Origin: Candidatus Wallbacteria bacterium
GTDB lineage: Bacteria; Muiribacteriota; UBA9980
NCBI GenBank assembly: GCA_041441465.1
Contig: JASDSY010000029.1
Location: 72,197 to 136,196 of the forward strand
Direction of reading: 5' to 3'
DNA: 64,000 bases
Positions 2,477 through 25,468 of the stretch are shown piece after piece. The translations under genes were made by a program, and so were the position numbers. Each line of letters starts with the position of its first letter. Within the stretch, counting starts at the first letter, position 1. The notes below the pieces were generated by a model. The model ran no database searches. It had not been told where the DNA came from and saw only the letters and a program-made list of their open reading frames with translations.

Positions 2477-2651
2477 CTGCATCTGATAAGAATTGATTAA
2501 TCCGGCAGATTGAAATTATAATAACTTTAAAAGTCGATGATAGTATATCTAAATGGCGAAAAAAAATTAGTATTTCTGATTTTTCAATATATTTAATCCT
2601 GTAAAAGTTGAGTATGTTTTTAATACTTAAGTTTTTATAAAAGGAAAAGTC

Positions 2652-3503: not shown

Positions 3504-3535
3504 ATTGCAAATATTGAATAAGGGATGGTTCTTAA

Positions 3536-4387: not shown

Positions 4388-4615
4388 AAGTTTTTTATTT
4401 TTTATCTATTTTTAGAAATTAAGTTTATCCGCAACTAATTTTTGCTGATAATTATAAAATTGCCGTTCCGGTAAGCGAACTATAACATAACAAGGAAGCC
4501 TGAATTTTAATAATTTGAGAGCAATAAAAATTTTTTCAATTGTCAGATAATTTCAAGTTTATTTTAAATTTTATAACGGATTATTAGTAAATCGATATGA
4601 TATATTTGGTAGGTT

Positions 4616-5572: not shown

Positions 5573-5655
5573 TTATTGACTTTATTGATAAATTAAAATA
5601 TAATACATCCCATATATAAAATTATCCTGATATATTTATTATTATAAAGGGGCGT

Positions 5656-6249
5656 ATGATGAGAATAGTTGTCGCGCATACAGGGGCTTCAGGTTCAATA
5701 TACTGCTTGAAATTCTTGAAATGGCTTTCGCTGAAACGTGATGTGAAAGTGTCTTTTATCGCTTCGGCAGAAGGTTATAAAGTGCTTCAGCACGAGGCGC
5801 AATATACGAAAAATGATATTAAAAAATTAGTGCCGACAATTATTTCTAATAATGATTTATTCGCCGATATATCGTCCGGAACTGCCGGCGTGAACGCGAT
5901 GGTAATAGTTCCGGCAAGCATGAATACCATAGCCAAGATCGTTCACGGCGTTTCCGATACTTTAATCACGAGATGCGCTTCTAATATGCTTAAATTAAGG
6001 CGCAAGCTTATTGTTGTCGCGCGTGAAATGCCGCTTTCGACAATTCATCTTGAAAATTTAACGGCGCTTTCAAAAGCCGGAGCCGATATAATGCTAGCTG
6101 CGCCGCCTTTTTATAATCTTCCTAAAAACATAGACGAATTGACTCTTCCCGTTTTATATTACATAAACGAACTTCTCGGCCTTGAAAATAATATAAACTT
6201 CAAATGGCGCGGTGAAAGCATTGCGTCTGCTAAAGATGACGAAGATTAA
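5656..6249 (+). CDS. ubiX: UbiX-family flavin prenyltransferase (prFMN synthase, partner of UbiD)
   Basis: MRIVVAHTGASGSIYCLKFLKWL matches the UbiX/Pad1 N-terminus (IVGISGASGAIYG). It is ~195 aa and sits next to ubiD. Confidence 0.85.
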   Translation: MMRIVVAHTGASGSIYCLKFLKWLSLKRDVKVSFIASAEGYKVLQHEAQYTKNDIKKLVPTIISNNDLFADISSGTAGVNAMVIVPASMNTIAKIVHGVSDTLITRCASNMLKLRRKLIVVAREMPLSTIHLENLTALSKAGADIMLAAPPFYNLPKNIDELTLPVLYYINELLGLENNINFKWRGESIASAKDDED

Positions 6250-6344: not shown

Positions 6345-7409
6345 GTGAATATGACTTTAAGCAGTAAAACGTCAAATGTCTTAGAATTAAATAGCGGCTG
6401 GATTCGGCACCTTCTTGAAAGTAACGAAAAATCGTATCTTTCGAAGTTCGCTCAGTTATCGACGCATACGCGCGGACGTGAAAAAACAGAAGACGAATGT
6501 CTTTATAGAACCTGTTACCAGCGCGACCGCGATAAAATACTGCACGCAAAATCGTTTCGAAGATTAAAGGACAAAACGCAGGTTTATATCAGAAAAAGCA
6601 CTGACCATGTCCGTGTCCGCCTTACTCATACTCTTGAAGTAATGCAGGTGGCGCGTACTATCGCCAGGGCTTTGCGCTTGAACGAGGATCTTGTGGAAGC
6701 GATTTCGCTCGGCCATGATCTTGGCCATACCCCGTTCGGCCATACCGGCGAGGCGGTTTTAAATTCGCTTCTTCCGGGCGGGTTCCGGCATAGCATCCAG
6801 TCGCTGCGCGTGGTTGATAAGCTTGAAAAAAACGGCCACGGGCTTAATTTATGTTTTGAGGTGCGCGAAGGTATTTTAAAGCATTCGAAAACAAGAACGG
6901 GAATATTCAGCTCATTTGGCAATGATTTTCCGTCTACGCTCGAAGCGATGGTAGTGAAGATTTCAGACAGCATCGCTTACATTAATCATGATCTTGACGA
7001 TGCTATTTATTCGGGGCTTGTAAAGGAAGAACAGATCCCTGAAGAGGTATTTGAAACAATCGGAAGAACTAACGGCCACCGGATAAGTTCTATGGTGACC
7101 GATGTAATCGAGCAAAGCATGGATTTACCCGAAATAAAAATGTCCGATGAAATTTTAAATGTGACAAATTCATTAAGAGATTTTTTATTTGAAAATGTTT
7201 ATATGAAAGAAGATAATTTTGAAGAGGCGCGCGAAGCACGTAATATTATTAGTTTCCTGTTTGATTATTATGTAAAGCATAAAGATGCGCTGGTTAAGGA
7301 TATAGGCAGGTCTGTCGATGACATTCCGATCGAGGTGGCTGCAGCTGATTTAATCTCGTCGATGACCGATAATTACGCTTCAAAAAAATATGAATCCATA
7401 AGAAGTTAA
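6345..7409 (+). CDS. dGTP triphosphohydrolase-like HD-domain phosphohydrolase
   Basis: QRDRDKILHAKSFRRLKDKTQV and the HD motif LGHDLGHTPFGHTGE are diagnostic of the Dgt-like HD superfamily. Confidence 0.75.
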   Translation: MNMTLSSKTSNVLELNSGWIRHLLESNEKSYLSKFAQLSTHTRGREKTEDECLYRTCYQRDRDKILHAKSFRRLKDKTQVYIRKSTDHVRVRLTHTLEVMQVARTIARALRLNEDLVEAISLGHDLGHTPFGHTGEAVLNSLLPGGFRHSIQSLRVVDKLEKNGHGLNLCFEVREGILKHSKTRTGIFSSFGNDFPSTLEAMVVKISDSIAYINHDLDDAIYSGLVKEEQIPEEVFETIGRTNGHRISSMVTDVIEQSMDLPEIKMSDEILNVTNSLRDFLFENVYMKEDNFEEAREARNIISFLFDYYVKHKDALVKDIGRSVDDIPIEVAAADLISSMTDNYASKKYESIRS

Positions 7410-7423
7410 TATCTGGAGGAACC

Positions 7424-7912
7424 ATGAAAGTTTATTATCTGAAAAGTTCTAAAAAAACTAACAAACATGCTGACAGATACGCAAACGGACTTGCGTTTGT
7501 CGAGCTGGTGGTCACCATAACCATAATTGGAATTTTAGTTGCGGTGGCTGTTTTGAATTACGATAAAATAAAACAAGATATAAAAAAGAAAGCCTGCATC
7601 GCGAATATGTCGTCAATACACAGCGCTACAAGGCTTTTTTATATGGAAAACCCGATGTCGACAAATGAAAATGTTACGGTTTCTAAATTGCTTGAGCAAA
7701 ATTACCTTAAAACCGACCCGCAATGCCCGAATGCACAGGGATTGACTAAATCTGACGCTTTTTATGCGATCGAAGACAGCGTAGGAAAAAAAATTGATGT
7801 AAAATGCGTGAATATGAAGCACAGCGAATTAGCGCACGGCTCATTTTTAAAAATAACTACGCCTGTCAAACCCGGCGCTAACGAAACTAATTCCGGGTCA
7901 AATTCCAATTAA
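7424..7912 (+). CDS. Prepilin-type N-terminal cleavage/methylation-domain protein (type IV pilin or pseudopilin-like)
   Basis: ANG|LAFVELVVTITIIGILVAVAV fits the class III signal peptide (G|F/L..E plus a hydrophobic helix). The leader is unusually long (21 aa) and basic. Confidence 0.55.
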   Translation: MKVYYLKSSKKTNKHADRYANGLAFVELVVTITIIGILVAVAVLNYDKIKQDIKKKACIANMSSIHSATRLFYMENPMSTNENVTVSKLLEQNYLKTDPQCPNAQGLTKSDAFYAIEDSVGKKIDVKCVNMKHSELAHGSFLKITTPVKPGANETNSGSNSN

Positions 7913-8272
7913 AATTTATTTGCCGTGGTTTTATTGTGGCAGGTATATTAAACCCTTTTTTTGATTATTTAAATACGGGTTTTATACTTGAATTACATAA
8001 AGTGTTATTATGTTCGAGTTGAATTTTGTCTAATAATCAAAAAATAGATTCCGTTAAAAATTTAGAAAATTATATTAATTAAGCCGTTCAGGTTATATAT
8101 CAGATTATATAAAGGATTTACTATCTTAATTGGCCGGCAGGCTATTTAAAAAACTGTCGTATGCGATGCAGTTAAAGATAATATGAAATAGAATTATTAA
8201 ACAAATAATTACTCACTTTAGTAAGCGAGTATAAAAGGCTCTTTAAAATAATGAAAGAATGGTGGAGATTTT

Positions 8273-11200
8273 ATGAATAATCAGAAAAATCAAGTTTATT
8301 ACGAAATTTCACATGCTGAAAAAAGAATGTTCTATCTTCAAAAATTTTATAAAGATACGACGATGTGTAATATTCCGCATACCGTATTATTTGACAAACC
8401 TGTTGATTTTCCCTTGCTGAACAGAGCAATAAATATTTTTATAAAAAATAACCAGAACTTAAGAATACGCTTTTGCGAAATAAATGACGAGCCTAAACAG
8501 TATTTTTCTGATTTTTCTGAGACTAATTTTGAGATAATTAATTTTTCCGCTGCCGAGGCCATGGAAAAATGGGCCGCCGCGAAATCACTTGAAACATTTG
8601 GCGATTTATACGAAAAAGATTTGTATAAAATCGTTTTAATAAACTTAGGTGATAAACGCGGCGGTTTTTTTGTTAATTTCCACCATATAATTTTCGACGG
8701 TATGTCTTTCGCCTTCTTTACCGATAAAATTTATGAATATTACGGCAAATTGTTAAACAATGAAAATATACCTGAAGAAAAATTCACTTTATATTCAGAG
8801 TATTTAAAAGATGAAAATGCTTATCTTAATTCGAAATCGGCTCAGGACGATTTGAAATATTGGAAAAATATTTTCAGCACTGATGTCGAACAGCTGGAAC
8901 TGAAGCCCGGCGCTGATAATACGTCAATCGACATTAAAAGGAATTATCATCGCGTATCAAATGAATTGAATGATAAAATTTATAAGTATTGCTCGAAAAA
9001 TAACATTTCCGTTTATAAACTTTTTATGGCATGCCTTTATACCTACTACAATAGACTTACTCAAAAAGAAGACCTTGTTATTTCAACTACTCACCATAAC
9101 CGCTCTGAAGGTTTCAAAAAAACAACCGGAATGTTTATAAGCACATTGCCGCTTCGTTTGAAATTTTCGCCTGATATTACATTCAAAGAATTATTAACCC
9201 TTTATTTAAATGAATTTGACGAAATGATGAAGCATCAAAAATATCCTACTGATATGCTGATTTCTGAACTTAGAAATGAAAAGCGCGATATTGAAAATGT
9301 TTTCAATATAATGGCCGCAGCATATATCAAAAGCGATAATTCTAAAATTAACGTTAAGTCTTATGCTAATTCAAACTCCGTAAGCGCCGTGACCTATTTT
9401 ATATCCTACAATAATAAAGAAAAACTGCCTGTTGAATTAATGATCGATTACAAAACTTCAATTTACAATGAAAATGAAGCAAGCCTCATGGCCGGCCATA
9501 TTTTTAATATATTAAACGCGGTTACCGGCGATGATAATATAAAAATAAATAAAATAGACTTTTTAACCGATTCTGAAAAACGCCGTCTTATAAATGAATT
9601 CAATGATACGGCGGCATATTATCCCGCGGACAAAACCTTTATCGATATATTCGACGAACAGGTAATCAAAACGCCGAATAAAAAAGCCGTTGTTTACCTC
9701 GATAAATCATATACTTACCTCGAACTATATAACCGCGCTGAAAAACTTGCGCATAAGCTTCGGGGATTGGGCATAAAACGCGATGATATAGTTTCTATAT
9801 TCGTCGACCGTTCGCTCGAGATGTTCGTCGCGGCCGTCGGCGTTTTAAAAGCGGGCGGAGCTTTTATGCCGATAGATACGAAATACCCTGCAGATAGAAT
9901 AGAATTTATGCTCGCTGACAGCCAATCGCGAGTATTTTTGACGCAGAAACACCTTATCGAAAAAGCCAAGTTCGACGGCACGATAATTGACCTAGACGAC
10001 CAGTCGCTTTATTCGGCAGACTGCCCTAAAGTCAATAATGTCAATAAGCCCCAGGATCTTGCATATATAATTTATACATCGGGTTCGACCGGCAAGCCTA
10101 AGGGAACGATGATCGAACACGGTTCCCTGTTGAATTTTTCGTTCTGGTCCAAAAATTTTCATAATCTTACCGAAAATGACAATACTGCAAAACATGCGTC
10201 ATTCGGATTCGACGCTTCGATAGTCGAAGTTTTTCCGCCGCTTATCGCCGGCTGTGAAATTCATATCATCAGCGAAGATATTAAATTATCGCTTGTCGAA
10301 TTGAATGAGTATTTCGAAAAAAATAAAATCAGATACGCGTTTTTAACCACGCAGCTTGCCGAGCAATTTATGGAAAACATAGACAACAAATCATTAAGAT
10401 GGCTTGATACAGGCGGTGAAAAGTTAAGGACATTTAAGAAACGCGATTACCAGCTCGTGAATGTTTACGGCCCGACCGAGTGTACCGTATATACGACGGC
10501 ATTTCAGGTAAACAAAAATTATGAGAATATTCCTATAGGAAAACCTTTGAGCAACGCTAAAATATTCATAACCGACCGGTTCGGCAATTTGATGCCCGAA
10601 GGTTATTGCGGCGAATTATGTGTCGCCGGCGTCTGCCTGTCGCGCGGCTATTTAAACAGGCCTGAAACTACCGCCGAGAAATTTATTGAATGCCCGTTCA
10701 GTCCAAAAGAACGCATGTATAAAACCGGAGATTTGGTAAGATGGCTTCCGAACGGCGATATCGAATATATCGGCCGCATAGATAATCAGGTGAAATTACG
10801 CGGATTCAGGATAGAACTCGGCGAAATAGAACAGGAAATAATGAAGATTGACGGCATTAAAACATCGGCGGTTACCGTTATATCCGAGGGCGACAACAAG
10901 CTCTTATGCGCGTATATAGTTTCGGAAAGTAAAATAAGCGACGACGTCATAAAAAATACTCTGACTGCGACGCTTCCTGAATTCATGATCCCGAGCTATA
11001 TAGTAAGGCTTGAAACTATGCCGGTTAACGCGAGCGGCAAAATCGACAGGAAAGCGCTTCCTGCGCCTAATATTAAAATCGAAACGCAGAGCGCCTATGT
11101 CGCTGCGGAAGGCGAAATTGAGACAAGGCTTTTAAAAATGTGGAAGGAAACCCTCGGCATTGAAAATTTCGGTGTTTGCGACAATTTCTTTAAAATCGGC

Positions 11201-14200
11201 GGACACTCGCTTAAAGCAGTCATGCTGCAGGCTAAAATCGAGCGTGACTTTGGGGTAAGGGTGCCGGTAAGGAAAATATTCGAAGCGGCCACGATAAGAC
11301 TGCAGGCTGAATTGATAAAAGCTGAAAAATCCGGGACATCGAATATTGATCTTGAAAGACTTGCCGCCGAACAGTCATCAGGCAAAAAAGTTATTGAACG
11401 CGGCATGGCTTCTGTTTATATAGAGCCGGCCACGAACACTGAAAAAGCGCTTATTAAAATATGGGAAGAACTCTTAAATGTAGACGGCGTCGGAACAGGC
11501 GATAACTTCTTTTCGATAGGCGGGCATTCAATAAAAGCCGTTACAATGCAATATAAAATCGAGAAGGAGTTTAAAGCCAGAATCCCTGTTAAAGATATTT
11601 TCAAAGCGCCTACAATAAGAGAGCTCGCGGTGTTAATAGACGGCGCCGAAAAAGTTAGCGCGATTGAAACAAGCGTATCTTTGGGCGATAAAAATTATTA
11701 TCCGTCTTCCTCTGTACAGAAGCGACTGTTTATGATTGAACAGAAAGACGGTTCATCGACGACATATAATATTCCTATGGCAATGAGAATAAAGGGCAGG
11801 CTTGACGACTCCAGGTTGAGCGACTCCATCGAAAAGATGATAGAGCGTCATGAAGCGCTGCGTACGTCATTCGCGATGATCGACGGCGAGCCCATGATAA
11901 AAATAAATAAGGACGTCAAACTGAAGAAAATATATCAAAAGGCTGAAGAAAGCGAACTGGGCGATATAATGAAGGATTTCCTCAAGCCGTTCGACCTGAC
12001 TAAAGCGCCTTTATTTAGAATCAAACTCGTTAAAATTTCCGATGAAAATCACGTGCTTTTGATAGACGTTCACCATATAATATTCGACGGAATGTCTCTT
12101 GAGATATTCATGAAGGAACTTTTTGAAATATATTCGGGCCAGACGCTTCCGGCGCTCGAGTATCAATATAAAGATTTTGTGGCGTGGCAGCAGAAATATC
12201 TTAAATCAAACAAGATGATCGAGCAGGAAAAAGCATGGCTCGAGATGTTAAGCGGCGAGCTTCCTGTTTTGAATATGCCGACTGATCATGCGAGAACGGC
12301 CGAACCAGGCCTTGCCGGCGCGCAGTATGATTTCTTTATCGAGCACGAACTTTCGTCGAAACTTAAAAATTACGCTAATAAGACGCAATCTACTCTTTAT
12401 ATGGTGTTTTTGAGCGCGTTGAATATAATGCTTTCGAAATATTGTTCGCAGGAAGATATAATAGTCGGCAGCCCTCTTCTAGGCCGGCCTACCATAGAGT
12501 CGCAGCAGATGCTCGGCATGTTTGTAAACACAATGCCGGTGCGTAATTATCCTAAACCGGACAAGAAAGCGAACGAGTTCATCGACGAAGTAAAACGCAA
12601 CTTTTTTAACGTTATCGATAATCAGGATTATCAGCTTGACACGCTTATAGAAAAACTGAATATTAAGCGTGAATCGTCGCGTAATCCGTTATTTGACGTT
12701 ATATTCGTATTCCAGACTTCGCAGGGCATCAAAGATACGCGTTACGGCGATATTATGGTAAGCCCCGGCACTATCGAAACGGGAACGGCCAAATTCGACC
12801 TTTCGCTGCAGGCTTATGAAGCCGGCGATTATATTAAGTGCATGCTCGAATACCGCTGCAGCCTTTTCGAGCCGGACACAATCAAGCGTATGTCGATGCA
12901 CCTTTCAAATATTCTCGAGCAGATAGCGGATAATCCCGAAATTGCATTGAAAGATATAGAATTGATAACCGATTCCGAAAAGAAGACGGTTTTATATGAA
13001 TTTAACATGAACGATATGGATTATCCGAAAGATAAGACTGTCCATGAGCTTTTCGAAGTTAATGCCGAATTATATCCGGACAGGGGCGCGGTCGTTTATA
13101 AGGATAAGAAATATACATATCGTGAATTGAATGAACGCGCCAACATGCTGGCCCGCTGCCTTATTAAAAACGGCGTGAAGCCGCGCGGGTTCGTTGCGCT
13201 TATAAGCGAAAAATCAGCCGAAGTAGCCCTTTGCGCTCTCGCGATTCAAAAAGCCGGTGCGTGCTATGTGCCTATCGATCCGTCATATCCGCAGGATAGG
13301 ATCGAATATATGCTCGGCGATACCGCTTCTAATGTAGTGCTGTGCCAGAAGGAATTAATTGATAAAGTGCCTTTTAACGGCGTTAAAATCAATATTGACG
13401 ATGAGTCCATTTATTCAGGCGCTTCTGATGAACGGAAAAATCTTGACATTAAAGTCAACCCGGAGGATTTATCATATCTTATATATACTTCGGGCTCTAC
13501 CGGAAAGCCTAAAGGCGTTATGATAGAGCATCGTTCGATTATAAACCTTTGCTGGTGGGAAATAAATAAATATAAGCTTACACATGAGGATAAAATAACA
13601 CAATATGTTTCAATATGCTTCGATCCGTCGGTAGGCTGCGAGATGTTTTTGAGCCTGCTTGCCGGCGCCGAGCTGCATGTTGTCGCCCCTGAATTGAGAA
13701 TGGACCCTGTTAAACTCAATGAATATATGGAAAAAAATAAGGTGACATTCTCTATTTTACCTACGCAATTTTATGAACAATTCAGCGAATTGACTGATAA
13801 TAAATCGCTTCGTTATTTGATGGTTGGCGGCGAAAAGCTTAAAGCGTATAAAAAAGCTAATTATAAACTTATCAACGCTTACGGTCCGACTGAATATACC
13901 GTCGTTACAACGGCTTTCAATGTCGAAAAGGACTATGAAAATATTCCGATAGGTTCCGGCGTCGCAAATTCAAGGCTTTATGTTCTTGATAAATATAATA
14001 AACTTATGCCGGTCGGTGTTTACGGCGAATTGTGCATAAGCGGCGACGGCCTTGCGCGCGGCTACCTTAACAGGCCTGAACTTAATTCCGAAAAATTTCC
14101 GGCTGACCCGTTTTTAGAAGGCAAGAAAATGTATAGAACCGGCGATCTTGTAAGATGGCTTCCTGACGGGAATATTGAATTTAACGGGCGAATAGATTTC

Positions 14201-16429
14201 CAGGTTAAAATAAGGGGATTCAGGATAGAAATCGGCGAAATCGAGGCTCAGATGCAAAAACACGAGCAAATCGAGGCTGTGCTCGTGCTCGCCAAGGAAG
14301 ATGAATCCAAAAATAAATATTTGTGCGCGTTCTATTCGTCGAATGAAGAAATACCTAATTCGGATTTAAAGGCGTTTCTTGCTAAATCGCTCGCTAATTA
14401 TATGATTCCGTCATTTTTTGTGTGGGTAAAGGATATGCCGATCAATTCCAGCGGCAAAATCGACCGCAAGACTCTCGAAAAACTTGAAATTAAAAAGCCG
14501 GTTGAAGTTAAAGTCGATCCGCAGAATGAAAAGGAAGAAAAAATCGCCAGGGTCTGGCGCGAGGTATTAAATATTCAAAAGATCGGCATTAATGAAAATT
14601 TCTTTGAAATAGGCGGCCACTCTTTGAAAGCGGTTGCTGCGGTCGCTAAAATGCAAAATGATTTTGACGTTACGATTAACGATATTTTCAAATACCAGAC
14701 AATATTTGCGCTTGCCGCTAATTTAAAGGATAAGAAAGGTAGTCTTTCAGGAAAACTTGCTGAGATCAAGGCTAAGTCGGCGGAAATATCCAAAAAATCC
14801 GCTGAATTTATGGAATCAAAATGGTATCTTGATTTTGTTAAACAATATCAGGAAAAAAATAAGAAATACGAAAAAATTGATATCCATAAAAGAAAAAACT
14901 ATAAAGCTGTTTTATTGACAGGTGCTACAGGCTACCTTGGCGTATATTTGCTGCACGATTTGCTGAAATATTATAAATGCGATATTTATGTTCCGGTAAG
15001 AGGCAAGACCGACGGCGACTCTTTGAGAAGGCTTAACGAAAAATACCGTTACTATTTTAATTCGGAATTGACCGCCGCGCAGCTTGAACGGGTTAAGGTA
15101 ATATGCTGTTCGGAACTGCAGGATGAAAACCTCGGAATAGATAAAGCAATTTATGATAAATTAGTGGATACCGTCGACTGCGTAATTAATCCGGCCGCAA
15201 ACGTTAAACATTACGGCCGCTATGAGGAATTTTACGCGCCGAATGTCGGGGCTGTGGCAAATCTTGTTAAATTCGCGGCGTCAGGCATCAAAAAAGACCT
15301 GCATCATGTATCGACTGCTTCTGTGGCCAGCGGTTATATCGAAGGTACGGATTTTTCCGCGTTCTGCGAAGATACCTGCAATGTCGGCCAGAAATCTGAC
15401 AACCTTTATATAATTACGAAATTAATGGCCGAGGAGCTGGTCATTAAAGCGCGCGCCGAATTTGGCATTAACACGAACATATACAGGGTCGGCAATATCT
15501 CGTTTAATTCTGAAACAGGGCATTTGCAACAAAATGTCGAGGAAAACGCCTTCAGCACCATGGTCAAGTCGTTCGTCAACCTGGGCGTTGTACCGCAATC
15601 AGATGACATGGCCGAACTTTCGTTCGTAGATAAGACGAGCGCCGCAATTTTAGTTTTATTCGATAAGGCGAACCTTTTGAACGAGACTTATCACATTCAT
15701 AATTCAAAGCCTGTTAAGCTTTCCGATATATTGACTTCAAAAAAACTGGGCCTGTCCGTCGAAGCCGTCCCGTTGGAAACATTTATCGACAGACTTGGCG
15801 AGCTCGATAAAAAAGAATGCTTCAGGCAGCATGTTCAGAATTTCATGCTTCACCGCGGCTGGCTTTCGGAGTCTGGGCCTGAAACGCAGTTCGCTCTGCA
15901 TTCCGAACGTACGTTCATGCTCTTAAAAATGCTCGGCTTCGAGTGGCCTGAGCTTGACGAGATGAAACTTATCCAATTAATAACAATGTCGCTTAAGGAC
16001 AGAATAAAATTCATAATGGATTCGGAATTATTCAATAACATTCCATACACCGTACAGCGTGAGCTGGCATTCATTTCAAGGGAATTGGCGGTCGACGAAA
16101 ACGATACGCTGATATGGGAAGATAATGAATGCGAGAATATGTATATGATTGTCGACGGCGTCGCTGAAATCCAGAAAAGTTCAAAAAGCGGATGGGTTGG
16201 CACTATTATGGTCGCATCTGCCGGCGATGTCATCGGACTTGAAGCGCTGCTTGATAAAAAATCAGGAACGACGGCGGAAGCTATTATGGGCGATTTGACA
16301 ATACTAGCTTTTGATAAGAAAAAAATTAACTCGATATTAAAAACGGCGCCTGAACTTTGCTACAACCTGTTTAAGTTCGCTAACGCGCAGAGCGGAAGAA
16401 TGGCGGGAATGATCGCGAACTTCGCTTAA
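8273..16429 (+). CDS. Bimodular nonribosomal peptide synthetase: C-A-T-T / C-A-T-R plus a C-terminal cNMP-binding-like domain
   Basis: 2718 aa. C1 HHIIFDG at nt 8681-8700. A1 core LAYIIYTSGSTGKPKG at nt 10058-10105. PCP1 FFKIGGHSLKA at nt 11186 and PCP2 FFSIGGHSIKA at nt 11507. C2 HHIIFDG at nt 12071. A2 LSYLIYTSGSTGKPKG at nt 13469. PCP3 FFEIGGHSLKA at nt 14600. Thioester-reductase Rossmann motif LLTGATGYLGVYLL at ~nt 14911. Crp-like beta-roll (YMIVDGVAEI...AGDVIGLEALL) at ~nt 16040-16400. SD-like ggtggag lies upstream of the ATG. Confidence 0.95.
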   Translation: MNNQKNQVYYEISHAEKRMFYLQKFYKDTTMCNIPHTVLFDKPVDFPLLNRAINIFIKNNQNLRIRFCEINDEPKQYFSDFSETNFEIINFSAAEAMEKWAAAKSLETFGDLYEKDLYKIVLINLGDKRGGFFVNFHHIIFDGMSFAFFTDKIYEYYGKLLNNENIPEEKFTLYSEYLKDENAYLNSKSAQDDLKYWKNIFSTDVEQLELKPGADNTSIDIKRNYHRVSNELNDKIYKYCSKNNISVYKLFMACLYTYYNRLTQKEDLVISTTHHNRSEGFKKTTGMFISTLPLRLKFSPDITFKELLTLYLNEFDEMMKHQKYPTDMLISELRNEKRDIENVFNIMAAAYIKSDNSKINVKSYANSNSVSAVTYFISYNNKEKLPVELMIDYKTSIYNENEASLMAGHIFNILNAVTGDDNIKINKIDFLTDSEKRRLINEFNDTAAYYPADKTFIDIFDEQVIKTPNKKAVVYLDKSYTYLELYNRAEKLAHKLRGLGIKRDDIVSIFVDRSLEMFVAAVGVLKAGGAFMPIDTKYPADRIEFMLADSQSRVFLTQKHLIEKAKFDGTIIDLDDQSLYSADCPKVNNVNKPQDLAYIIYTSGSTGKPKGTMIEHGSLLNFSFWSKNFHNLTENDNTAKHASFGFDASIVEVFPPLIAGCEIHIISEDIKLSLVELNEYFEKNKIRYAFLTTQLAEQFMENIDNKSLRWLDTGGEKLRTFKKRDYQLVNVYGPTECTVYTTAFQVNKNYENIPIGKPLSNAKIFITDRFGNLMPEGYCGELCVAGVCLSRGYLNRPETTAEKFIECPFSPKERMYKTGDLVRWLPNGDIEYIGRIDNQVKLRGFRIELGEIEQEIMKIDGIKTSAVTVISEGDNKLLCAYIVSESKISDDVIKNTLTATLPEFMIPSYIVRLETMPVNASGKIDRKALPAPNIKIETQSAYVAAEGEIETRLLKMWKETLGIENFGVCDNFFKIGGHSLKAVMLQAKIERDFGVRVPVRKIFEAATIRLQAELIKAEKSGTSNIDLERLAAEQSSGKKVIERGMASVYIEPATNTEKALIKIWEELLNVDGVGTGDNFFSIGGHSIKAVTMQYKIEKEFKARIPVKDIFKAPTIRELAVLIDGAEKVSAIETSVSLGDKNYYPSSSVQKRLFMIEQKDGSSTTYNIPMAMRIKGRLDDSRLSDSIEKMIERHEALRTSFAMIDGEPMIKINKDVKLKKIYQKAEESELGDIMKDFLKPFDLTKAPLFRIKLVKISDENHVLLIDVHHIIFDGMSLEIFMKELFEIYSGQTLPALEYQYKDFVAWQQKYLKSNKMIEQEKAWLEMLSGELPVLNMPTDHARTAEPGLAGAQYDFFIEHELSSKLKNYANKTQSTLYMVFLSALNIMLSKYCSQEDIIVGSPLLGRPTIESQQMLGMFVNTMPVRNYPKPDKKANEFIDEVKRNFFNVIDNQDYQLDTLIEKLNIKRESSRNPLFDVIFVFQTSQGIKDTRYGDIMVSPGTIETGTAKFDLSLQAYEAGDYIKCMLEYRCSLFEPDTIKRMSMHLSNILEQIADNPEIALKDIELITDSEKKTVLYEFNMNDMDYPKDKTVHELFEVNAELYPDRGAVVYKDKKYTYRELNERANMLARCLIKNGVKPRGFVALISEKSAEVALCALAIQKAGACYVPIDPSYPQDRIEYMLGDTASNVVLCQKELIDKVPFNGVKINIDDESIYSGASDERKNLDIKVNPEDLSYLIYTSGSTGKPKGVMIEHRSIINLCWWEINKYKLTHEDKITQYVSICFDPSVGCEMFLSLLAGAELHVVAPELRMDPVKLNEYMEKNKVTFSILPTQFYEQFSELTDNKSLRYLMVGGEKLKAYKKANYKLINAYGPTEYTVVTTAFNVEKDYENIPIGSGVANSRLYVLDKYNKLMPVGVYGELCISGDGLARGYLNRPELNSEKFPADPFLEGKKMYRTGDLVRWLPDGNIEFNGRIDFQVKIRGFRIEIGEIEAQMQKHEQIEAVLVLAKEDESKNKYLCAFYSSNEEIPNSDLKAFLAKSLANYMIPSFFVWVKDMPINSSGKIDRKTLEKLEIKKPVEVKVDPQNEKEEKIARVWREVLNIQKIGINENFFEIGGHSLKAVAAVAKMQNDFDVTINDIFKYQTIFALAANLKDKKGSLSGKLAEIKAKSAEISKKSAEFMESKWYLDFVKQYQEKNKKYEKIDIHKRKNYKAVLLTGATGYLGVYLLHDLLKYYKCDIYVPVRGKTDGDSLRRLNEKYRYYFNSELTAAQLERVKVICCSELQDENLGIDKAIYDKLVDTVDCVINPAANVKHYGRYEEFYAPNVGAVANLVKFAASGIKKDLHHVSTASVASGYIEGTDFSAFCEDTCNVGQKSDNLYIITKLMAEELVIKARAEFGINTNIYRVGNISFNSETGHLQQNVEENAFSTMVKSFVNLGVVPQSDDMAELSFVDKTSAAILVLFDKANLLNETYHIHNSKPVKLSDILTSKKLGLSVEAVPLETFIDRLGELDKKECFRQHVQNFMLHRGWLSESGPETQFALHSERTFMLLKMLGFEWPELDEMKLIQLITMSLKDRIKFIMDSELFNNIPYTVQRELAFISRELAVDENDTLIWEDNECENMYMIVDGVAEIQKSSKSGWVGTIMVASAGDVIGLEALLDKKSGTTAEAIMGDLTILAFDKKKINSILKTAPELCYNLFKFANAQSGRMAGMIANFA

Positions 16430-16464: not shown

Positions 16465-16510
16465 AAAACGGCTGGAATTTTATAATTAATAGGATTCCAG
16501 CCGTTTTTAC
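16465..16510 (+). terminator. Rho-independent terminator after the NRPS gene
   Basis: cggctggaat...attccagccg hairpin followed by tttttac. Confidence 0.6.
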
Positions 16511-16751: not shown

Positions 16752-17462
16752 TTATAAAAATTGCAGCTTTTCTAAATCTATATAATTGATTTCGTATGAT
16801 ATATTTTGATTGCCGCAGGCGCAAAGCGCCGCTTTATAGCCTTTAAAATCGTTTATTCGCTTGAAATTGCAGTTGGTATTAAAACCCATTTGGCACGAAA
16901 CTTTTATGCTGTCATCGTTAAAGTCTAAGACAAATTTTGTAGGTTCGAGTGATAAGCCGGTGCCAAGGTATTTTATGTAACTTTCTTTAAGTGTCCATAA
17001 TTCATAAAAGTAATCGATTTGGGAATTTTTGGGAATGCTCTTGAATCTTTCGCATTCTTCCGGTGAAAAATAACTGCCGTTCATACTTAAATCGACAGGT
17101 TCTATTTTTTCTATGTCGATGCCCACTTCACTATCATAAAAAGCTAGTAAAACAAAATCTCCGGAATGTGAAATATTAAAGTAAAAATCATTACGGCCCT
17201 TTAAATAGACTTTTCCATTGGCATTTTTTTCTAACTCAACATTAAGCGGGCCGATATTCAGATTTTTCATAAGAGAATGCTTTAATAATAATATCGCGCC
17301 AATCGAGCGCAATGAATCGGCCTCGAACCTGAATGAATTAACTTTCATTTTTTCATCGCGGTTTAAAATACCGGAATAAAGGCCGAGAAGATGGCTGATC
17401 GAATTATTTTTTATGCATGCTGCGTATATTTTGATGCCGGTCATGGTCAAAATATAACACAA
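16752..17462 (-). CDS. Sfp-type 4'-phosphopantetheinyl transferase
   Basis: Motifs GKVYLKG...FNISHSGDFVLLAF and VGIDIEKIE fit PPTase motifs (GKP / FNxSHS / GxDxE). The true start may be the internal Met at 17444. The gene sits next to the NRPS. Confidence 0.75.
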   Translation of the reverse strand: MCYILTMTGIKIYAACIKNNSISHLLGLYSGILNRDEKMKVNSFRFEADSLRSIGAILLLKHSLMKNLNIGPLNVELEKNANGKVYLKGRNDFYFNISHSGDFVLLAFYDSEVGIDIEKIEPVDLSMNGSYFSPEECERFKSIPKNSQIDYFYELWTLKESYIKYLGTGLSLEPTKFVLDFNDDSIKVSCQMGFNTNCNFKRINDFKGYKAALCACGNQNISYEINYIDLEKLQFL

Positions 17463-17544: not shown

Positions 17545-20223
17545 ATGCAAAAGCTACCAATTATTATTCCGGAGTACTATAAATTAAGCAATGGATTTTC
17601 AATCTGCCTGTGCGGCAATTTTCCTTATAAATCCTCGCAAATATCGGTTTTATTTTTGTCTAAATGCGGGCTTTATTCAGAAACTCCTGAAAAGGCCGGA
17701 ATTACACATGCTCTTGAACATATGCTGTTTAAAGGCACGAAAAAACACAGCAATTTTGAATTTATGGCCGAAATTAACTCTCTGGGCTCGTCAGTTGACG
17801 CTTTTACAGCCGCCGATTCAATGTGTATCGAACTTATGTCGCCGGCTGATAATTTCGAAAAATCATTTTCACTATTTTCAGATTTGATCTTAAACCCGGT
17901 ATTCCCTGAAAAAGAAGTCGAGCTTGAAAAGAAAGTTGTAATAAATGAAATTCTTTTTTATGAGGATGATCCTGAAGATTTGCTGACGCTGCGCCTCGAA
18001 AGTGAATGTTTCAAAGGGACATGTTATCAAAATCCAATACTTGGAACGCGAAACAGTGTTAATTCGTTGACACGCGAAGAATTTCAAAAATATCATAAAG
18101 ATTATTTCACTCCGGAAAATTGCATGATGACTGTTATCGGCGATTTTAACGAACCTGAAATGGCCGGATTTATCGAGAAGTTTTTCGGCGAAAAAAAATG
18201 GAAACGTTCAAAGACCGGCCCTAAATATTTTAATTTAACAAATATAAACGATAAACCGACGCACAGCGTTATAAAAAGACTTGATAAGTTTTCACAAAAT
18301 TATCTCGGCTTCTCATTTGTGCTGCCGCCCTCGATCGCCGGAATTGATTCGTCGGCCATGATTTTGCCTTATGTGTTCAGCTCATTGAAATCATCGCCGC
18401 TCGGCTTTTTACTGCGCGAAAAAAATAATATCGTAAATGCTTTTAGCGCCGATTTGATATTTAAGCAGGGCGCATGGATGATGTCTCTTATCGCTTCGTG
18501 TGAGCCGCGTTATATGAATAAGGTTAAAAATATTATTCTTAATTTTATAAAAAGAGCTTCGTCGCTTGTTTCCAGAGAATTATTCGAAAGCGCCAGGAAT
18601 TTAATATTGCTCGATTACTTTCAGGAAATCGAGACTGCTAAGAATTATTGCAATGAACTTACCACATTTAACCATATAATCGGCGAAACTTCCTATAACA
18701 AATCTATCGAAAATCTTCTTAAAATATCATACGAAGATTTTCTTGATTATCTTTCTAAATATGTTGAACCGGCAGTTTTACATTTTGTCGAAATAATTTC
18801 GAAAGAAGTAAATTCATTTAAACACAATGCGGAATACATAAAACTTAAAAATCCTGACTTGGGCAAAGCTAACGCCGCAAATTTCGGATATGAAAATTCA
18901 TTCTATAAATTAAAAAAATATAACCCTAAATTATCTGCGGATGTTTCATGCAATACGGATAATCCGGCAAGACCTATTATCTCAACCATAGATACATCAT
19001 TGTTGTACTCAACCCTTAATATGTGGATCGAGGGCGGTGTCATAGCCTCACAAATACCCGGAGACGCTTATATTTTTAGCGAATTATTCGGCAAAAAAAC
19101 TCACTTATTGTCAAGTTATGATAATTTTATAAAAAATGACTATCTCGGCATATATTATGACTGCAACATATTTCTTGATTATGTCCTTATAGAAGCCGTC
19201 TGCCCTGGTAAATTTACCGGCGATAAAATAAAAAGGCTCGATGAATTTCTAAATGATTTTGATTTTACAGGCGATATGCTGAAAAAAGCCAAGCAGGTCG
19301 TTAAACGTTCAGTTGCAGGCGTTTATGACGATGTGTTCGAATATCCGTTCTGGAATTTCATTAAAATCCTTTTCGAAGGTAAATGCTATTCAAAATCAAT
19401 ATTCGGTAATGAAAAGTTTTTGTCTGAAATCAACGCGGAAAACGTTATTAATTATTATAACAACCTCAAAAACAGCTCGTCGAGATATTGCATTTCATAT
19501 TCAGCGGCCGTAAATTCAGCCGAAATTATAAAAAATAATCTTTCTTATATTAATTTATCAAGCCGGCGTCCGTTAGATATAAATCCCAATATGCAGGGCG
19601 GCAAATTAATTAACGGCTGTTCCAATATATTCAATAAATTTGATAAAAACGCTTTTTTAAACTCCGGTATCGGCGGCAAAACCATTGAAATAAAGTCAAG
19701 GCAGCAGCAGGCTACCGTTTTAATAGGCGGTTACGCTCCTGAAATCGCTAACGGCGATTCATTGGCTTTTTCTATAGCTAATTATATACTCGCCGATTAT
19801 ACCGGTAAAAGATTATGGGATCTGCGTGAATCCCACGGCCTGTGCTACAACATATTTTCTGAATATATTCCGTTGGCATACTCCGGCGTGTTTTTTTGCT
19901 ATGCCAATACCGACATAAATAAACTTGGTACCGTCGCCGAAAAAATATGCTGCGAACTAGATAAGTATTGCGCTGACGGCCCTACCGAAAAGGAAGTGGC
20001 TGAAGCTAAAATGCAGCTTATAAAGAAGATGGAGCTGGGGCTTAATTCGAGTGCCAGCCTGTCAAAAGCTGCCGGTAGTTCCATATTTTACGGCAAAACG
20101 CTGAGTGAATTCCTTGAATATAAAAAACGTATCGAAAGCGTTGAAGTGAATAAAATCAACGCGGTCATAAGAAAATACATGTCACCAAAAAAATTGCTTA
20201 CTTTAAGGGTTTTGACTTCATAA
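17545..20223 (+). CDS. Two-unit M16-family zinc metallopeptidase (pitrilysin-like; inverted zincin HxxEH)
   Basis: 892 aa. The inverted zinc motif GITHALEHMLFKG lies near residue 56, and the length fits a fused active plus inactive M16 unit. Confidence 0.8.
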   Translation: MQKLPIIIPEYYKLSNGFSICLCGNFPYKSSQISVLFLSKCGLYSETPEKAGITHALEHMLFKGTKKHSNFEFMAEINSLGSSVDAFTAADSMCIELMSPADNFEKSFSLFSDLILNPVFPEKEVELEKKVVINEILFYEDDPEDLLTLRLESECFKGTCYQNPILGTRNSVNSLTREEFQKYHKDYFTPENCMMTVIGDFNEPEMAGFIEKFFGEKKWKRSKTGPKYFNLTNINDKPTHSVIKRLDKFSQNYLGFSFVLPPSIAGIDSSAMILPYVFSSLKSSPLGFLLREKNNIVNAFSADLIFKQGAWMMSLIASCEPRYMNKVKNIILNFIKRASSLVSRELFESARNLILLDYFQEIETAKNYCNELTTFNHIIGETSYNKSIENLLKISYEDFLDYLSKYVEPAVLHFVEIISKEVNSFKHNAEYIKLKNPDLGKANAANFGYENSFYKLKKYNPKLSADVSCNTDNPARPIISTIDTSLLYSTLNMWIEGGVIASQIPGDAYIFSELFGKKTHLLSSYDNFIKNDYLGIYYDCNIFLDYVLIEAVCPGKFTGDKIKRLDEFLNDFDFTGDMLKKAKQVVKRSVAGVYDDVFEYPFWNFIKILFEGKCYSKSIFGNEKFLSEINAENVINYYNNLKNSSSRYCISYSAAVNSAEIIKNNLSYINLSSRRPLDINPNMQGGKLINGCSNIFNKFDKNAFLNSGIGGKTIEIKSRQQQATVLIGGYAPEIANGDSLAFSIANYILADYTGKRLWDLRESHGLCYNIFSEYIPLAYSGVFFCYANTDINKLGTVAEKICCELDKYCADGPTEKEVAEAKMQLIKKMELGLNSSASLSKAAGSSIFYGKTLSEFLEYKKRIESVEVNKINAVIRKYMSPKKLLTLRVLTS

Positions 20224-22108: not shown

Positions 22109-23086
22109 CTAATTTGTGCCGTCGAATAGTAACGGCGAATATTGTATTTTTTCGGTATTTTCCAGAAGTTTTATGTTAACAGCCAGAAAATTTTCTAAAA
22201 ATAATTTAATATTGGGTGTTTTTCCGAATCCGCCTGAGATTACTATTTCAGAAAGTTTTATATGCGGATATTTCGATATAAAAAACTCGTAGGTTATATG
22301 CAGTTCCTTTAAAAACTTGTCAGTTGCCTTAAGTTTATGTGATTCAAACTCGGAAAGCGAGTTGAAGTCGATTTTATCCGGAAAGATTTTATGTTCCGAT
22401 ATTTTTTTTGCAGATTCGCTTTTGGAAATTGGATGTTTAAGTTCGAGTGTTTCTATTATCTCATCGGCGAAATGCCTGCCTGCTGTTTCTATTATCCTTA
22501 CATAAACCGGTTCTGAGTCCACGAAAAAATAAAATGTGGTAACCTCATGGCCGATGTTTAATAGTCCGAAATTTTCCTTTAAAATTCCATTTTGTGAAAT
22601 GAAATTATATATTGCATGACACGACATATCGATTGACATAATTTTTATTTTCGCGTTTTCGAATAACTCGGTCAATTTATTTATCAATTCTTCTTTTACA
22701 AGGCAAACGTAGCAGTCGGCGTATAATTTGCCGGTTTCGATGTCTTTTTCGGTTTTGCATATATGCGCGTCTATTTTACAGCCGCTGTAAACTTCCTCGC
22801 GGATCTGGTCGCGCGCGCGCCAGAGGATATACTCTTTTGTGTATTCGGCCGGTAAATCGTTTACTCTTACGAATATCTGCCGCGCCCACTGGTCAGGCAG
22901 AAGAAGGTTGATTTTGGTTATTCCCTCTTTCCTTAATTTTTCAATATATCCGGCAAGTTCGGTTTCGTTTATTTGCGGAATTGTAAAAGTGCCGCCGATA
23001 ACGTCATTTCCAAAAATATATTCGTGAAAATTTCCGTTTTTTGTGTATTTAAGGCTGTATCCGCCTATGTCCACGTTAGAAACCAC
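22109..23086 (-). CDS. pilM: PilM, actin-like type IV pilus assembly ATPase
   Basis: 325 aa. N-terminal VDIGGYSLKY (actin-fold phosphate-1) and C-terminal ISGGFGK, in the pilB-pilM-pilN order. Confidence 0.7.
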   Translation of the reverse strand: MVSNVDIGGYSLKYTKNGNFHEYIFGNDVIGGTFTIPQINETELAGYIEKLRKEGITKINLLLPDQWARQIFVRVNDLPAEYTKEYILWRARDQIREEVYSGCKIDAHICKTEKDIETGKLYADCYVCLVKEELINKLTELFENAKIKIMSIDMSCHAIYNFISQNGILKENFGLLNIGHEVTTFYFFVDSEPVYVRIIETAGRHFADEIIETLELKHPISKSESAKKISEHKIFPDKIDFNSLSEFESHKLKATDKFLKELHITYEFFISKYPHIKLSEIVISGGFGKTPNIKLFLENFLAVNIKLLENTEKIQYSPLLFDGTN

Positions 23087-23109
23087 GGGACGCTCCTTTC
23101 TAACTGCGT

Positions 23110-24981
23110 TTAATCTTCAAATGTAACTCTGTTAATTTCCTCGATTGTAGTCATGCCTTCGATGACTTTTGCCCAGGCAGCCTGCCTGAGAGTTTTCATT
23201 CCTTCACTGATTGCCTGGCTTTTAATTTCAAGCGGCGACGCTTTTTTTAATATCAGCGACTTAATTTCATCGGACAAAGCAAGTGTTTCATAAATGCCGG
23301 TGCGCCCTTGATATCCGGTATTATGGCAGTAACGGCAGCCTTTGCCCCTATATAATTTACGGCCGCCGCAATATTTTTCAAAATCGCTAATTAGGGCCGT
23401 AGTTTCTTTATCAGGAACATATTCCTCTTTGCAGTTCGAGCATATTTTCCTGATAAGGCGCTGTGAAATGATCAGGTTAAAAGATGCGGCGAATTGGTAA
23501 GGTTCGACACCCATATTTGTAAGACGCGCTATAGCGTCTATTACGTTATTGGCGTGTATCGTCGAAAGTACAAGATGGCCTGTTAATGCTGCATTGACTG
23601 CAATTGCGGCAGTTTCGGTATCGCGTATTTCGCCTATCATGATTTTATCCGGGTCCTGTCTTACAATCGAACGAAGTCCAGACGCGAACGTCAGACCCTT
23701 TTTTTCGTTGACGTTAACCTGGACTATATCGGGTATCTGGTATTCTACGGGGTCCTCTATCGTAATGAGTTTGTCTTCAGGTGTTTTAATCGCTTTAATG
23801 GCCGAATAAAGCGTCGTGGTTTTGCCCGAACCTGTCGGCCCAGCCGATAAGATCATTCCGTAAGGTTTGAATATGTTTTTTTTGAATTTAAGCATATCTT
23901 CAGACGGGAATCCGAGTTTTTCAAGGTCAAGGCCGACCGCGTTCTGGTCTAAAATTCTTATTACGACGGTTTCACCAAAAATGGAAGGCAGTACGGATAC
24001 TCTGAAATCTATGTTTCTGTCGTCGATATATGCCTTAAAACGACCGTCCTGCGGCACGCGTTTTTCTGAAATATCGAGATTAGCCATATTTTTAATTCGC
24101 GATACTATAAAGTTCCGCGATTTTGGATCGATTTTTTTCACGTTAAAAAGCGCGCCGTCGATCCTGAATTTAACTTTCATTTCTTCTGGATAGATCTCAA
24201 TATGAATATCTGATGCTTTTTTGCGTATGGCTTTTATTAATATAGAATTAACCGTATTAACGATAGTCGCGTCGGAATATGTCTTGAGAAATTCCATATC
24301 GCCTTTATCATCGGTATCGTCTTCGCTGAGACTCTTTATAGCGACTGTTTCTTCGGTTTCAGAAAATAACGCGCTTTCACTTAATGAAGTTTCGGCCACA
24401 AGGTTGATCACTCTCATAATTTCGGATCTTACAGCTACGTAAGAAATTGTTGGAATACCTATTATCGACTCGATTTCTTCGATGCGTTCCACATCTGACG
24501 GGTCGTCCATTAATATTATTAATTTGTCGCCCTCTTTTTTGTATGGTATGAAGTTATAACGTCTGACAATGTTTATATCGAATTGGGAAAAAAGCGCGTC
24601 GTCAATTTTCATTTCGCTTAAATCTATGAATTCGGTTTTATGCTGAATGGCTACGGCTTTATAAAGATTTTTAGGCTTAATAAGTCCGCGGTCAACGATC
24701 AATTCTTTTAAATTTAACGGCATGCCGTTAAATTCATTTATTATTTTTTCGAGCTCGAAAGGCGAGAGCATTCCTTCGGAAATCAAAACATCCTCGAGCG
24801 AATGTGATTTCATGGCATAAAAATAATATTTATATGCGTCGTTTTCGTCCAATAAAACGCCGTCAGCAATTAAATTTTTTAATCCGTCTTGAAAATCTTT
24901 TGTAACCAGCTCATTGTAATTTTCAAGGGTGATTTTGCCTTTTAATTTAAGCTCATATAATATCTTTTCCCAGACTTTCAT
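23110..24981 (-). CDS. pilB: PilB/GspE-family type IV pilus assembly ATPase
   Basis: Walker A GPTGSGKTTTLYSA, Asp box, His box and the tetracysteine CSNC...CRYC motif are present. SD ggaggc lies upstream. Confidence 0.9.
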   Translation of the reverse strand: MKVWEKILYELKLKGKITLENYNELVTKDFQDGLKNLIADGVLLDENDAYKYYFYAMKSHSLEDVLISEGMLSPFELEKIINEFNGMPLNLKELIVDRGLIKPKNLYKAVAIQHKTEFIDLSEMKIDDALFSQFDINIVRRYNFIPYKKEGDKLIILMDDPSDVERIEEIESIIGIPTISYVAVRSEIMRVINLVAETSLSESALFSETEETVAIKSLSEDDTDDKGDMEFLKTYSDATIVNTVNSILIKAIRKKASDIHIEIYPEEMKVKFRIDGALFNVKKIDPKSRNFIVSRIKNMANLDISEKRVPQDGRFKAYIDDRNIDFRVSVLPSIFGETVVIRILDQNAVGLDLEKLGFPSEDMLKFKKNIFKPYGMILSAGPTGSGKTTTLYSAIKAIKTPEDKLITIEDPVEYQIPDIVQVNVNEKKGLTFASGLRSIVRQDPDKIMIGEIRDTETAAIAVNAALTGHLVLSTIHANNVIDAIARLTNMGVEPYQFAASFNLIISQRLIRKICSNCKEEYVPDKETTALISDFEKYCGGRKLYRGKGCRYCHNTGYQGRTGIYETLALSDEIKSLILKKASPLEIKSQAISEGMKTLRQAAWAKVIEGMTTIEEINRVTFED

Positions 24982-25030
24982 TTTGCCTCCGGTATGAACT
25001 AATTAGGTTTTATTTAATATTGATTTAAAG

Positions 25031-25445: not shown

Positions 25446-25468
25446 CAAAATTCCCTGGTAATAATTTA

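Follow-up and report, generated by a model that had tools for sequence, protein, structure and literature searches.

A CRP/FNR-type cyclic-nucleotide-binding-fold domain behind the terminal reductase of nonribosomal peptide synthetases from mostly uncultured bacteria

The synthetase and its C-terminal domain

We analysed a 64,000-nucleotide stretch of DNA from a Candidatus Wallbacteria bacterium (contig JASDSY010000029.1, positions 72,197 to 136,196), hereafter the window, which carries a nonribosomal peptide synthetase (NRPS) gene whose product ends in a domain with the cyclic-nucleotide-binding (CNB) fold, placed after the terminal thioester reductase (R) domain. The synthetase shares 100% identity with MEZ7892622.1, a protein from a metagenome-assembled genome (MAG) of Candidatus Wallbacteria. 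The gene and the features that concern us are as follows, with C, A and T denoting condensation, adenylation and carrier domains and aa denoting residues of the protein.

8273-16429, forward strand: NRPS gene (2718 aa, from the list of open reading frames (ORFs) and the translation; order C-A-T-T-C-A-T-R-CNB by Pfam and local phmmer)
14909-15985, forward strand: terminal R domain (aa 2213-2571; PF07993 and TIGR01746 matches)
15932-15949, forward strand: LGFEWP motif, marking the end of the R domain (aa 2554-2559; 6vtj alignment and R-only relatives)
15959-16426, forward strand: CRP/FNR-type CNB domain (aa ~2563-2718; N-terminal helices, beta-roll, alpha-B and long C-helix; AlphaFold2, Foldseek and hhalign)
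16091-16345, forward strand: PF00027 (cNMP_binding) core (aa 2607-2691; Pfam)
16181-16204, forward strand: beta4-beta5 hairpin SKSGWVGT, the family signature (aa 2637-2644; conservation table)
16223-16282, forward strand: degenerate phosphate-binding cassette GDVIGLEALLDKKSGTTAEA (aa 2651-2670; HMMER alignments to PKA-R 5kbf and PKG)
16349-16426, forward strand: C-helix with hydrophobic heptads (aa 2693-2718; AlphaFold2 helix at model residues 140-164)
16465-16507, forward strand: intrinsic-terminator-like hairpin (19-pair stem, then a T-rich tail)

Pfam recognises two Condensation, two AMP-binding and three PP-binding stretches in this protein, together with NAD_binding_4 at aa 2215-2454 and PF00027 at aa 2607-2691. 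A T domain precedes the R domain, and the translation has the GGHS serine in all three PP-binding stretches. Since the terminator-like hairpin begins 36 nt past the stop codon, the end of the ORF is genuine.

Judging by its sequence, the R domain is apparently catalytically intact. PF07993 scores 156.4 bits against a cut-off of 20.1, and TIGR01746 aligns over positions 2-363 of 371 with 209.3 bits, marginally under its cut-off of 213.35. The TGxTGxxG cofactor motif is present as TGATGYLG at aa 2216, and the T...YxxxK triad as T2348 and YIITK at aa 2379; cofactor motif and Thr/Tyr/Lys triad are kept in all 57 of the R-CNB sequences checked. The closest solved R domain is that of the archaeal Mru_0351 PCP-R didomain (6vtj, E 4e-31), and the alignment extends through LGFDWPEADEEYLKRL, near the end of the 6vtj chain, a construct comprising Mru_0351 residues 3701-4187 (PMC8024701). 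The closest R-only relatives (38-45% identical) terminate in ...LGFEWPKVxxxHIKKMIxYCKxVGFL, about 20 residues past LGFxWP, and the W of LGFEWP is invariant in both the R-CNB and the R-only groups. In the window protein the helix that follows LGFEWP runs straight on as the first CNB helix, with no linker. The last ~155 residues of the synthetase are a CRP/FNR-type effector domain of CNB fold, joined directly to the final helix of R.

The initial annotation, made from the letters alone, had proposed a Crp-like CNB-fold domain after the reductase at 16040-16429. Pfam and TIGR01746 positions bear out its place behind the reductase at the extreme C-terminus, and the peptide then quoted (FNNIPYTVQ...KKKINSIL) occurs exactly in the translation of the forward-strand ORF 8273-16429. 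The end of the range is right and includes the stop codon, but the start needs correction, as the peptide begins three codons earlier (F2587, nt 16031) and the structural domain about 25 residues further upstream again, at aa ~2563 (nt 15959).

Fold and pocket of the CNB domain

PF00027 matches the whole protein with 37.8 bits and the isolated last 159 aa with 43.5 bits (E 3e-11), against a gathering score of 27.5, so the HMMER comparison suggested in the initial annotation gave a clear match. In a phmmer search of the tail against PDB sequences, the top matches were all CAP-family chains (e.g. the Crp/Fnr regulator 3e97, E 1.6e-4). AlphaFold2 run on the single tail sequence performed poorly (pLDDT 42) and a family alignment was needed; with an alignment of 35 family sequences, the last 165 residues were modelled with a pLDDT of 94.5 and a pTM of 0.86. 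The model consists of two N-terminal helices, alpha-A, a beta-roll, a short cassette helix, alpha-B and a 25-residue C-helix, that is, a predicted eight-stranded beta-roll flanked by N-terminal helices and alpha-B/alpha-C. Foldseek comparison of the model with the PDB returned 630 matches at E<=1e-3, and the top 50 listed are all CNB domains; PKA RI-alpha CNB-B is matched with E 1e-10, and PKG, Epac2 and HCN are also found.

The best superpositions are with dimeric bacterial proteins, CRP of M. tuberculosis and GlxR (TM-score 0.76-0.78, root-mean-square deviation 1.7-2.0 A over ~141 columns). Aligned by hhalign to E. coli CRP, the family gives a probability of 96.9%, with family P140 equivalent to CRP P110. 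Alignments of the family profile to PKA and PKG end at about positions 136-146; only with CRP/FNR-type chains does the alignment go on through 156-161 and so take in the C-helix. The predicted CAP/CRP-type fold is thus upheld by Pfam, by the quality of the model and by the matches to PKA, PKG, CRP and GlxR, and can be narrowed to CRP/FNR-like, C-helix included.

Along the C-helix, positions 147, 150, 154, 157, 161 and 164 are conserved hydrophobics in a 3-4 heptad pattern, aligned to CRP 117, 120, 124, 127, 131 and 134, positions that we take to make the contacts of the coiled coil in the CRP dimer. The last residue of the family corresponds to about CRP 135, at the hinge where the DNA-binding domain would start, and in the window protein Pfam finds no winged helix-turn-helix (PF13545/PF00325). 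NCBIfam holds no model covering the tail; it gives weak matches to the Pat and family 2B encapsulin models.

To describe conservation we used 78 non-identical family sequences, and positions are in alignment numbering unless a protein residue is given. G76 and W88 (W2641 in the window protein) are invariant. W5, F3, R24, E63, S84, G87, G90, T91 and G102 are each kept in more than 85% of the sequences and E116 in 83%; T114 and A117 are also conserved. At the tip of the beta4-beta5 hairpin lies the GWxGT signature, which hhalign aligns to CRP G56-K57, its W to K57, a residue that presumably lies in the exposed activating region 3 (AR3) flap, a protein-contact surface of CRP. Among family members the mean pairwise identity reaches 47% in the N-terminal and 36% in the C-terminal subdomain of R, compared with 35% in the CNB roll and 27% in the C-helix. 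The roll is about as conserved as part of the enzyme itself, and the domain is therefore under comparable selection.

The pocket departs from the cyclic-nucleotide type. The window domain lacks the Gly-Glu...Arg-(Ala/Ser/Thr) phosphate-binding cassette: in the HMMER alignment to PKA-R 5kbf (KRAAT versus KSGTT) the Arg is replaced by Ser2664, as the initial annotation had proposed from the sequence, and the Glu after Gly by Leu. The family alignment to PKG pairs DEPRSAT with ekpssvt, so that PSS(V/I)T lies without gaps on the PRAAT motif of PKA and PKG. In the Arg column Ser occurs in 50, Ala in 15, Tyr in 4 and Lys in 2 of the 78 sequences, and the canonical cassette Glu is found in only 32. 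With Ser in the window and Ser or Ala in the family at the Arg position, classical binding of cAMP or cGMP by the window domain is therefore unlikely. The pocket is nonetheless under selection, with G102, T114, E116 and A117 conserved, yet non-canonical.

Distribution of the family

Word-indexed protein searches with the tail or the family profile gave almost nothing, and an exhaustive search was needed. Comparison by HMMER of the last 159 aa with 1.84 billion cluster representatives (50% identity) yielded 301 matches at E<=1e-3. Among the best 150 of these, at least 48 proteins have R-CNB endings flush with the C-terminus, the majority being multimodular NRPSs with lengths of 1500-5238 aa. 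In species-representative genomes, a degenerate DNA pattern for WEG[DE]-x10-G-x10-GWxGT matched 31 loci, of which 30 hold an NRPS ORF that ends in T-R-CNB and stops 74-76 aa past GWxGT. The search for further synthetases with a terminal CNB domain, suggested in the initial annotation, thus uncovered a large conserved family. About 80 sequences were gathered, spanning about ten phyla, mostly of uncultured bacteria. Record titles of the DNA-pattern loci include Vulcanimicrobiota, Wallbacteria, Muiribacteriota, Bacteroidota, Gammaproteobacteria (including Competibacteraceae), Negativicutes and other Bacillota, Synergistia and Geobacter; further members come from Syntrophomonas, Azotosporobacter soli, Riflebacteria and MAGs of Neisseriales/Burkholderiales. 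At least one member, WP_346355761.1 of A. soli, belongs to a named species with a place in RefSeq.

Some genomes carry two R-CNB synthetases (L003 and L008, L001 and L026, L013 and L016), and minimal A-T-R-CNB synthetases also exist (P0015, P0040). Public annotations never name the CNB domain in these proteins, which bear generic titles such as "amino acid adenylation domain-containing protein", while fragments appear as "CRP-like cAMP-binding protein". We considered whether the family includes stand-alone small CNB proteins and rejected this, since the ~150-aa matches are fragments: either their contigs measure 0.6-1.7 kb or they group with longer proteins. Of 26 relatives retrieved with the R domain, all but two, P0174 (61% identical) and P0049, are without the CNB domain, and the existence of close reductase relatives that lack it marks it as an accessory module. 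NRPSs of many bacterial lineages, for the most part uncultured, share the T-R-CNB ending as a conserved accessory termination module.

The same CNB subtype, with GWxG[TS] and about 75 aa from the motif to the C-terminus, also terminates two kinds of protein that are not NRPSs. One comprises free-standing Condensation-CNB (C-CNB) proteins of ~640 aa (P0026, P0138, P0139). The gene for P0026 (L032 10001-11938, L033 3684-5621) has a metallo-beta-lactamase-fold gene on one side and Amidase_3/GerM genes on the other; its neighbourhood is one of housekeeping or sporulation genes, where no NRPS gene was found. The other kind comprises ~1000-aa proteins with a major facilitator superfamily (MFS)/TLC transporter, HEAT repeats and a related C-terminal CNB (P0057, P0069, P0085, P0097, P0101, P0137), and in P0101 GWxGT lies 75 aa before the end. 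These ~1000-aa matches were considered as NRPS candidates and rejected on being identified as MFS/TLC-HEAT proteins. Its presence on such different proteins makes the domain a portable module and fits a general regulatory role.

P0215 (1536 aa, C-A-T-R-CNB, Neisseriales/Burkholderiales; L040 1-7851, L041 3-6363) was found on more than 15 contigs, and precomputed Pfam matches miss its CNB domain. Its gene adjoins F-type conjugation genes (TraV, TrbI, TraK, TraE, TraL) and a RepA_C gene, which suggests that it is located on a plasmid or an integrative and conjugative element.

Genomic neighbourhood

Several features of the window synthetase gene itself may be noted here. Module 1 has two tandem T domains (window ~11165-11647), each with the GGHS serine motif, and the order C-A-T-T-C-A-T-R-CNB recurs at three other loci (L002, L013, L027). 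The G+C content is 33% at window positions 8001-10000, the first ~2 kb of the gene, coding for the N-terminal C domain, versus 42-43% at 10001-16000, and 33-40% in the flanking genome; this unevenness may reflect recombination of part of the gene or its horizontal acquisition. The surrounding genes are listed below.

1019-6249: UbiD, two UbiA prenyltransferases, a UbiE-type methyltransferase and a UbiX-like flavoprotein, upstream of the NRPS gene
6345-7409: dGTP triphosphohydrolase, upstream
7424-7912: ComGC/pilin-like protein, upstream
16752-17462, reverse strand: Sfp-type 4'-phosphopantetheinyl transferase (PPTase), convergent with the NRPS gene (PF01648 and PF22624)
17545-20223: M16 (insulinase-type) peptidase, just downstream of the PPTase gene
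22109-26692 and 36567-38921: type IV pilus/type II secretion system genes (PilM-like, T2SSE ATPase, T2SSF), then a TPR-secretin, downstream of the M16 peptidase
44389-46167: HAMP-GAF-GGDEF diguanylate cyclase, 28 kb from the NRPS gene

The ubiD/ubiA/ubiA/ubiE/flavoprotein block is consistent with a quinone biosynthesis operon. The PPTase gene is the sole other recognisable biosynthetic gene in what is a small NRPS cluster, and a PPTase gene also adjoins the NRPS gene in L020, L022, L023, L031, L034, L039 and L042.

Across about 36 R-CNB NRPS loci surveyed, the recurrent neighbours are PPTase genes and exporters of the MFS_3/MFS_1 type. Such EntS-like exporter genes abut or overlap the NRPS gene in L034 (8611-10014), L036 (8729-10000), L037 (6715-7998), L039 (18948-20183), L010 (1760-3037) and L011 (5103-6377); next to the window NRPS gene there is none. 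Partner-switching genes stand directly beside the NRPS gene in seven of the ~36 loci, from several phyla: L012 (2566-2895, reverse strand), L024 (1-298), L037 (23890-24222), L036 (25739-29128), L008 (7233-8000), L015 (2831-6229, reverse strand) and L026 (891-4301). Their products are single-domain STAS proteins, PP2C phosphatases of the SpoIIE type, several of which carry dCache-HAMP sensors, and in one case a HATPase_c_2 protein. In both L012 and L037 the genes run NRPS, STAS, deaminase, HlyD, MFS, and L024 has a STAS ORF homologous to theirs, at which the locus ends. In A. soli a small GGDEF gene (L035 18081-18731) lies immediately downstream of the R-CNB NRPS gene. Each locus examined has one CNB domain only; this, together with the housekeeping neighbourhood of the C-CNB protein, led us to reject hetero-docking through paired CNB domains.

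Possible functions of the domain

The reading that we favour, at a probability of roughly 40%, is that the CNB domain serves as a built-in CRP-type sensor and dimerisation module for a ligand other than cAMP or cGMP, tuning reductive release of the product. The domain would represent the effector and C-helix module of a CRP/FNR protein after loss of the DNA-binding domain, and its C-helix would pair the C-termini of two synthetase chains. The beta-roll pocket, minus the Arg that contacts the cyclic phosphate, would bind the ligand, and ligand occupancy or dimer geometry would be relayed through the N-terminal helix of the domain, into which the final helix of the C-terminal subdomain of R runs on. 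This subdomain binds substrate and carrier protein, and the relay would tune NAD(P)H-dependent release of a product that is presumably a dipeptide aldehyde or alcohol. Sensing of a ligand, gating of release and dimerisation are what we infer from the features described, which are compatible with sensing and with dimerisation and prove neither.

Several observations weigh against this reading. The ligand is itself putative, both hallmark cyclic-nucleotide contacts are degenerate, and no linked nucleotide cyclase or conserved partner gene was found across the ~36 loci. The window domain is among the more divergent members, with WEDN in place of WEGE and a cassette one residue shorter. R-only relatives at 38-45% identity lack the domain, and some interleave with R-CNB sequences in a rough, support-free neighbour-joining tree, so the domain looks dispensable for catalysis. 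Nor do any R-surface positions clearly separate R-CNB from R-only sequences, with just four mild columns, and there is thus no sign of a co-adapted interface between the two domains.

The main rival, for which the odds are clearly poorer though far from trivial, is constitutive, ligand-free dimerisation: the C-helix coiled coil would simply join two NRPS C-termini as a scaffold, possibly to the benefit of synthetase stability or of the condensation of two released amino-aldehydes. The heptad hydrophobics at positions aligned to the CRP C-helix, the termination of the protein at the hinge, the top TM-scores to dimeric CRP and GlxR and the degenerate cassette all agree with such a role, as does the resemblance of the minimal A-T-R-CNB synthetases P0015 and P0040 to pyrazine-forming A-T-R enzymes (PMC7586950). 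Dimerisation alone, however, leaves unexplained why G102, T114, E116 and the GWxGT hairpin are more conserved than the C-helix (35% vs 27%), and characterised NRPS R domains act as monomers. In another reading the exposed Gly-Trp tip of the hairpin would be a docking surface for a partner such as an exporter, a PPTase or a STAS/partner-switching protein. W88 is invariant at the tip of the beta4-beta5 flap, at what we take to be the AR3 protein-contact surface of CRP, and STAS or SpoIIE genes stand beside the NRPS gene in seven of ~36 loci and MFS_3 exporter genes abut it in several. We regard docking as unlikely, in that no neighbour is conserved family-wide, the window lacks STAS and SpoIIE genes as well as an adjacent MFS gene, and the hairpin is shared by the C-CNB and MFS-HEAT-CNB proteins, whose contexts are unrelated.

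Two further possibilities concern what the pocket might hold. It could be a site for the product or an intermediate, such as the peptide aldehyde or the acyl/peptidyl chain, providing feedback inhibition or shielding the cell from a reactive aldehyde. Among NRPS-type proteins, attachment is only to offloading domains (R and free-standing C), and Ser/Thr stands in the pocket where the Arg was. This idea strikes us as rather improbable, as the pocket motif is kept in synthetases of one to four or more modules, with presumably very different products, and the C-CNB protein has a non-NRPS neighbourhood. A true receptor for cAMP or cGMP (or c-di-GMP), using a non-canonical phosphate contact such as a Lys/Arg just before the Ser, would fit the intact fold, the R/K that 22 of 78 sequences have one position earlier (Lys2663 in the window), the acidic residue at alignment position 104, two past the cassette Gly, in 79%, and the GGDEF gene directly after the NRPS gene in A. 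soli. Against it, the structurally equivalent Arg is missing in essentially all members, only 41% have the canonical Glu, none of the loci examined has a linked cyclase and the GGDEF gene of the window is 28 kb off; we consider it very unlikely. There is, finally, next to no chance that the domain is a non-functional relic or an artefact of assembly or annotation, e.g. a crp-like gene fused by error. Beyond the absence of a name for the domain in public annotations, nothing specific favours this, and the family data effectively refute it: the frame is unbroken in ~78 distinct sequences from independent assemblies and phyla, conservation is at the level of the R C-terminal subdomain and a clean terminator lies past the stop.

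If the favoured sensor and dimerisation role is extended to the C-CNB proteins, the R-CNB and C-CNB proteins together may constitute an unrecognised class of NRPS offloading, in which a CRP-derived sensor gates release post-translationally, possibly by ligand-controlled dimerisation. This broader proposal is more speculative. Control of NRPS output is normally placed at transcription and substrate supply, whereas a conserved sensor-type domain on a release domain would mean signal-regulated chain release or synthetase oligomerisation. Were the proposal true, an NRPS megaenzyme would for the first time be seen under direct allosteric control by a metabolite, and this control would be widespread in uncultured anaerobic and candidate phyla. 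It would offer prospects for activating silent clusters of uncultured phyla, a part for switchable assembly lines and a new class of non-cyclic-nucleotide ligand for the CNB fold; a family of about 80 sequences is large enough for structural and biochemical work.

Comparison with known systems

Full-text literature searches turned up no NRPS described as carrying a CNB domain; papers that contain both terms concern separate terpene-cluster regulators or encapsulins. Together with the lack of an NCBIfam model for the tail, this agrees with the remark in the initial annotation that no NRPS ending in a CAP-family domain was known, and the R-CNB ending seems never to have been described before. 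NRPS R release modules (AusA 4f6c, MxaA 4u7w, Mru_0351 PCP-R 6vtj; PMC8024701) have in common with the window protein the T-R ending, the NAD(P)H motif and the Thr/Tyr/Lys triad, and the window R domain is 30-45% identical to R-only relatives. These relatives end ~20 residues after LGFxWP and the 6vtj construct shortly after it, whereas the window synthetase has ~155 residues more, the CNB domain. With CRP/FNR proteins (E. coli CRP, M. tuberculosis CRP 3d0s/4a2u, C. glutamicum GlxR 3r6s, Deinococcus 3e97) the fold is common over ~140 residues, through the N-terminal helix, beta-roll, alpha-B and 25-residue C-helix, with hydrophobic heptads at aligned positions. Unlike these regulators, the NRPS tail has no helix-turn-helix DNA-binding domain, sits at the C-terminus of an enzyme, has Ser/Ala for the cassette Arg and possesses the GWxGT hairpin, which CRP does not.

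A link between the CNB fold and secondary-metabolite biosynthesis has been described in the form of cnb genes in geosmin/2-methylisoborneol clusters and of family 2B encapsulin shells with an inserted CNB domain (PMC4558948, PMC8346489). Those proteins are separate regulators or shell proteins of terpene systems and not domains of a megaenzyme.

As regards control of an enzyme, the regulatory subunits of PKA and PKG, Epac and mycobacterial Pat likewise place a catalytic domain under the control of a CNB domain or join the two covalently, with the N-terminal helices and the C-helix as moving parts. These proteins keep the Arg/Glu cassette and bind cAMP or cGMP, whereas the NRPS cassette is degenerate, and the enzyme controlled would here be the release domain of an assembly line, for which we found no precedent. 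Loss of the Arg is compatible with other ligands elsewhere: the PKA regulatory subunits of trypanosomatids bind nucleosides, and the CNB-homology domains of KCNH channels hold an intrinsic ligand. These proteins are unrelated to the NRPS domain, which they resemble by fold and Arg loss. They likewise keep the CNB fold and lose the Arg, so such pockets can still function.

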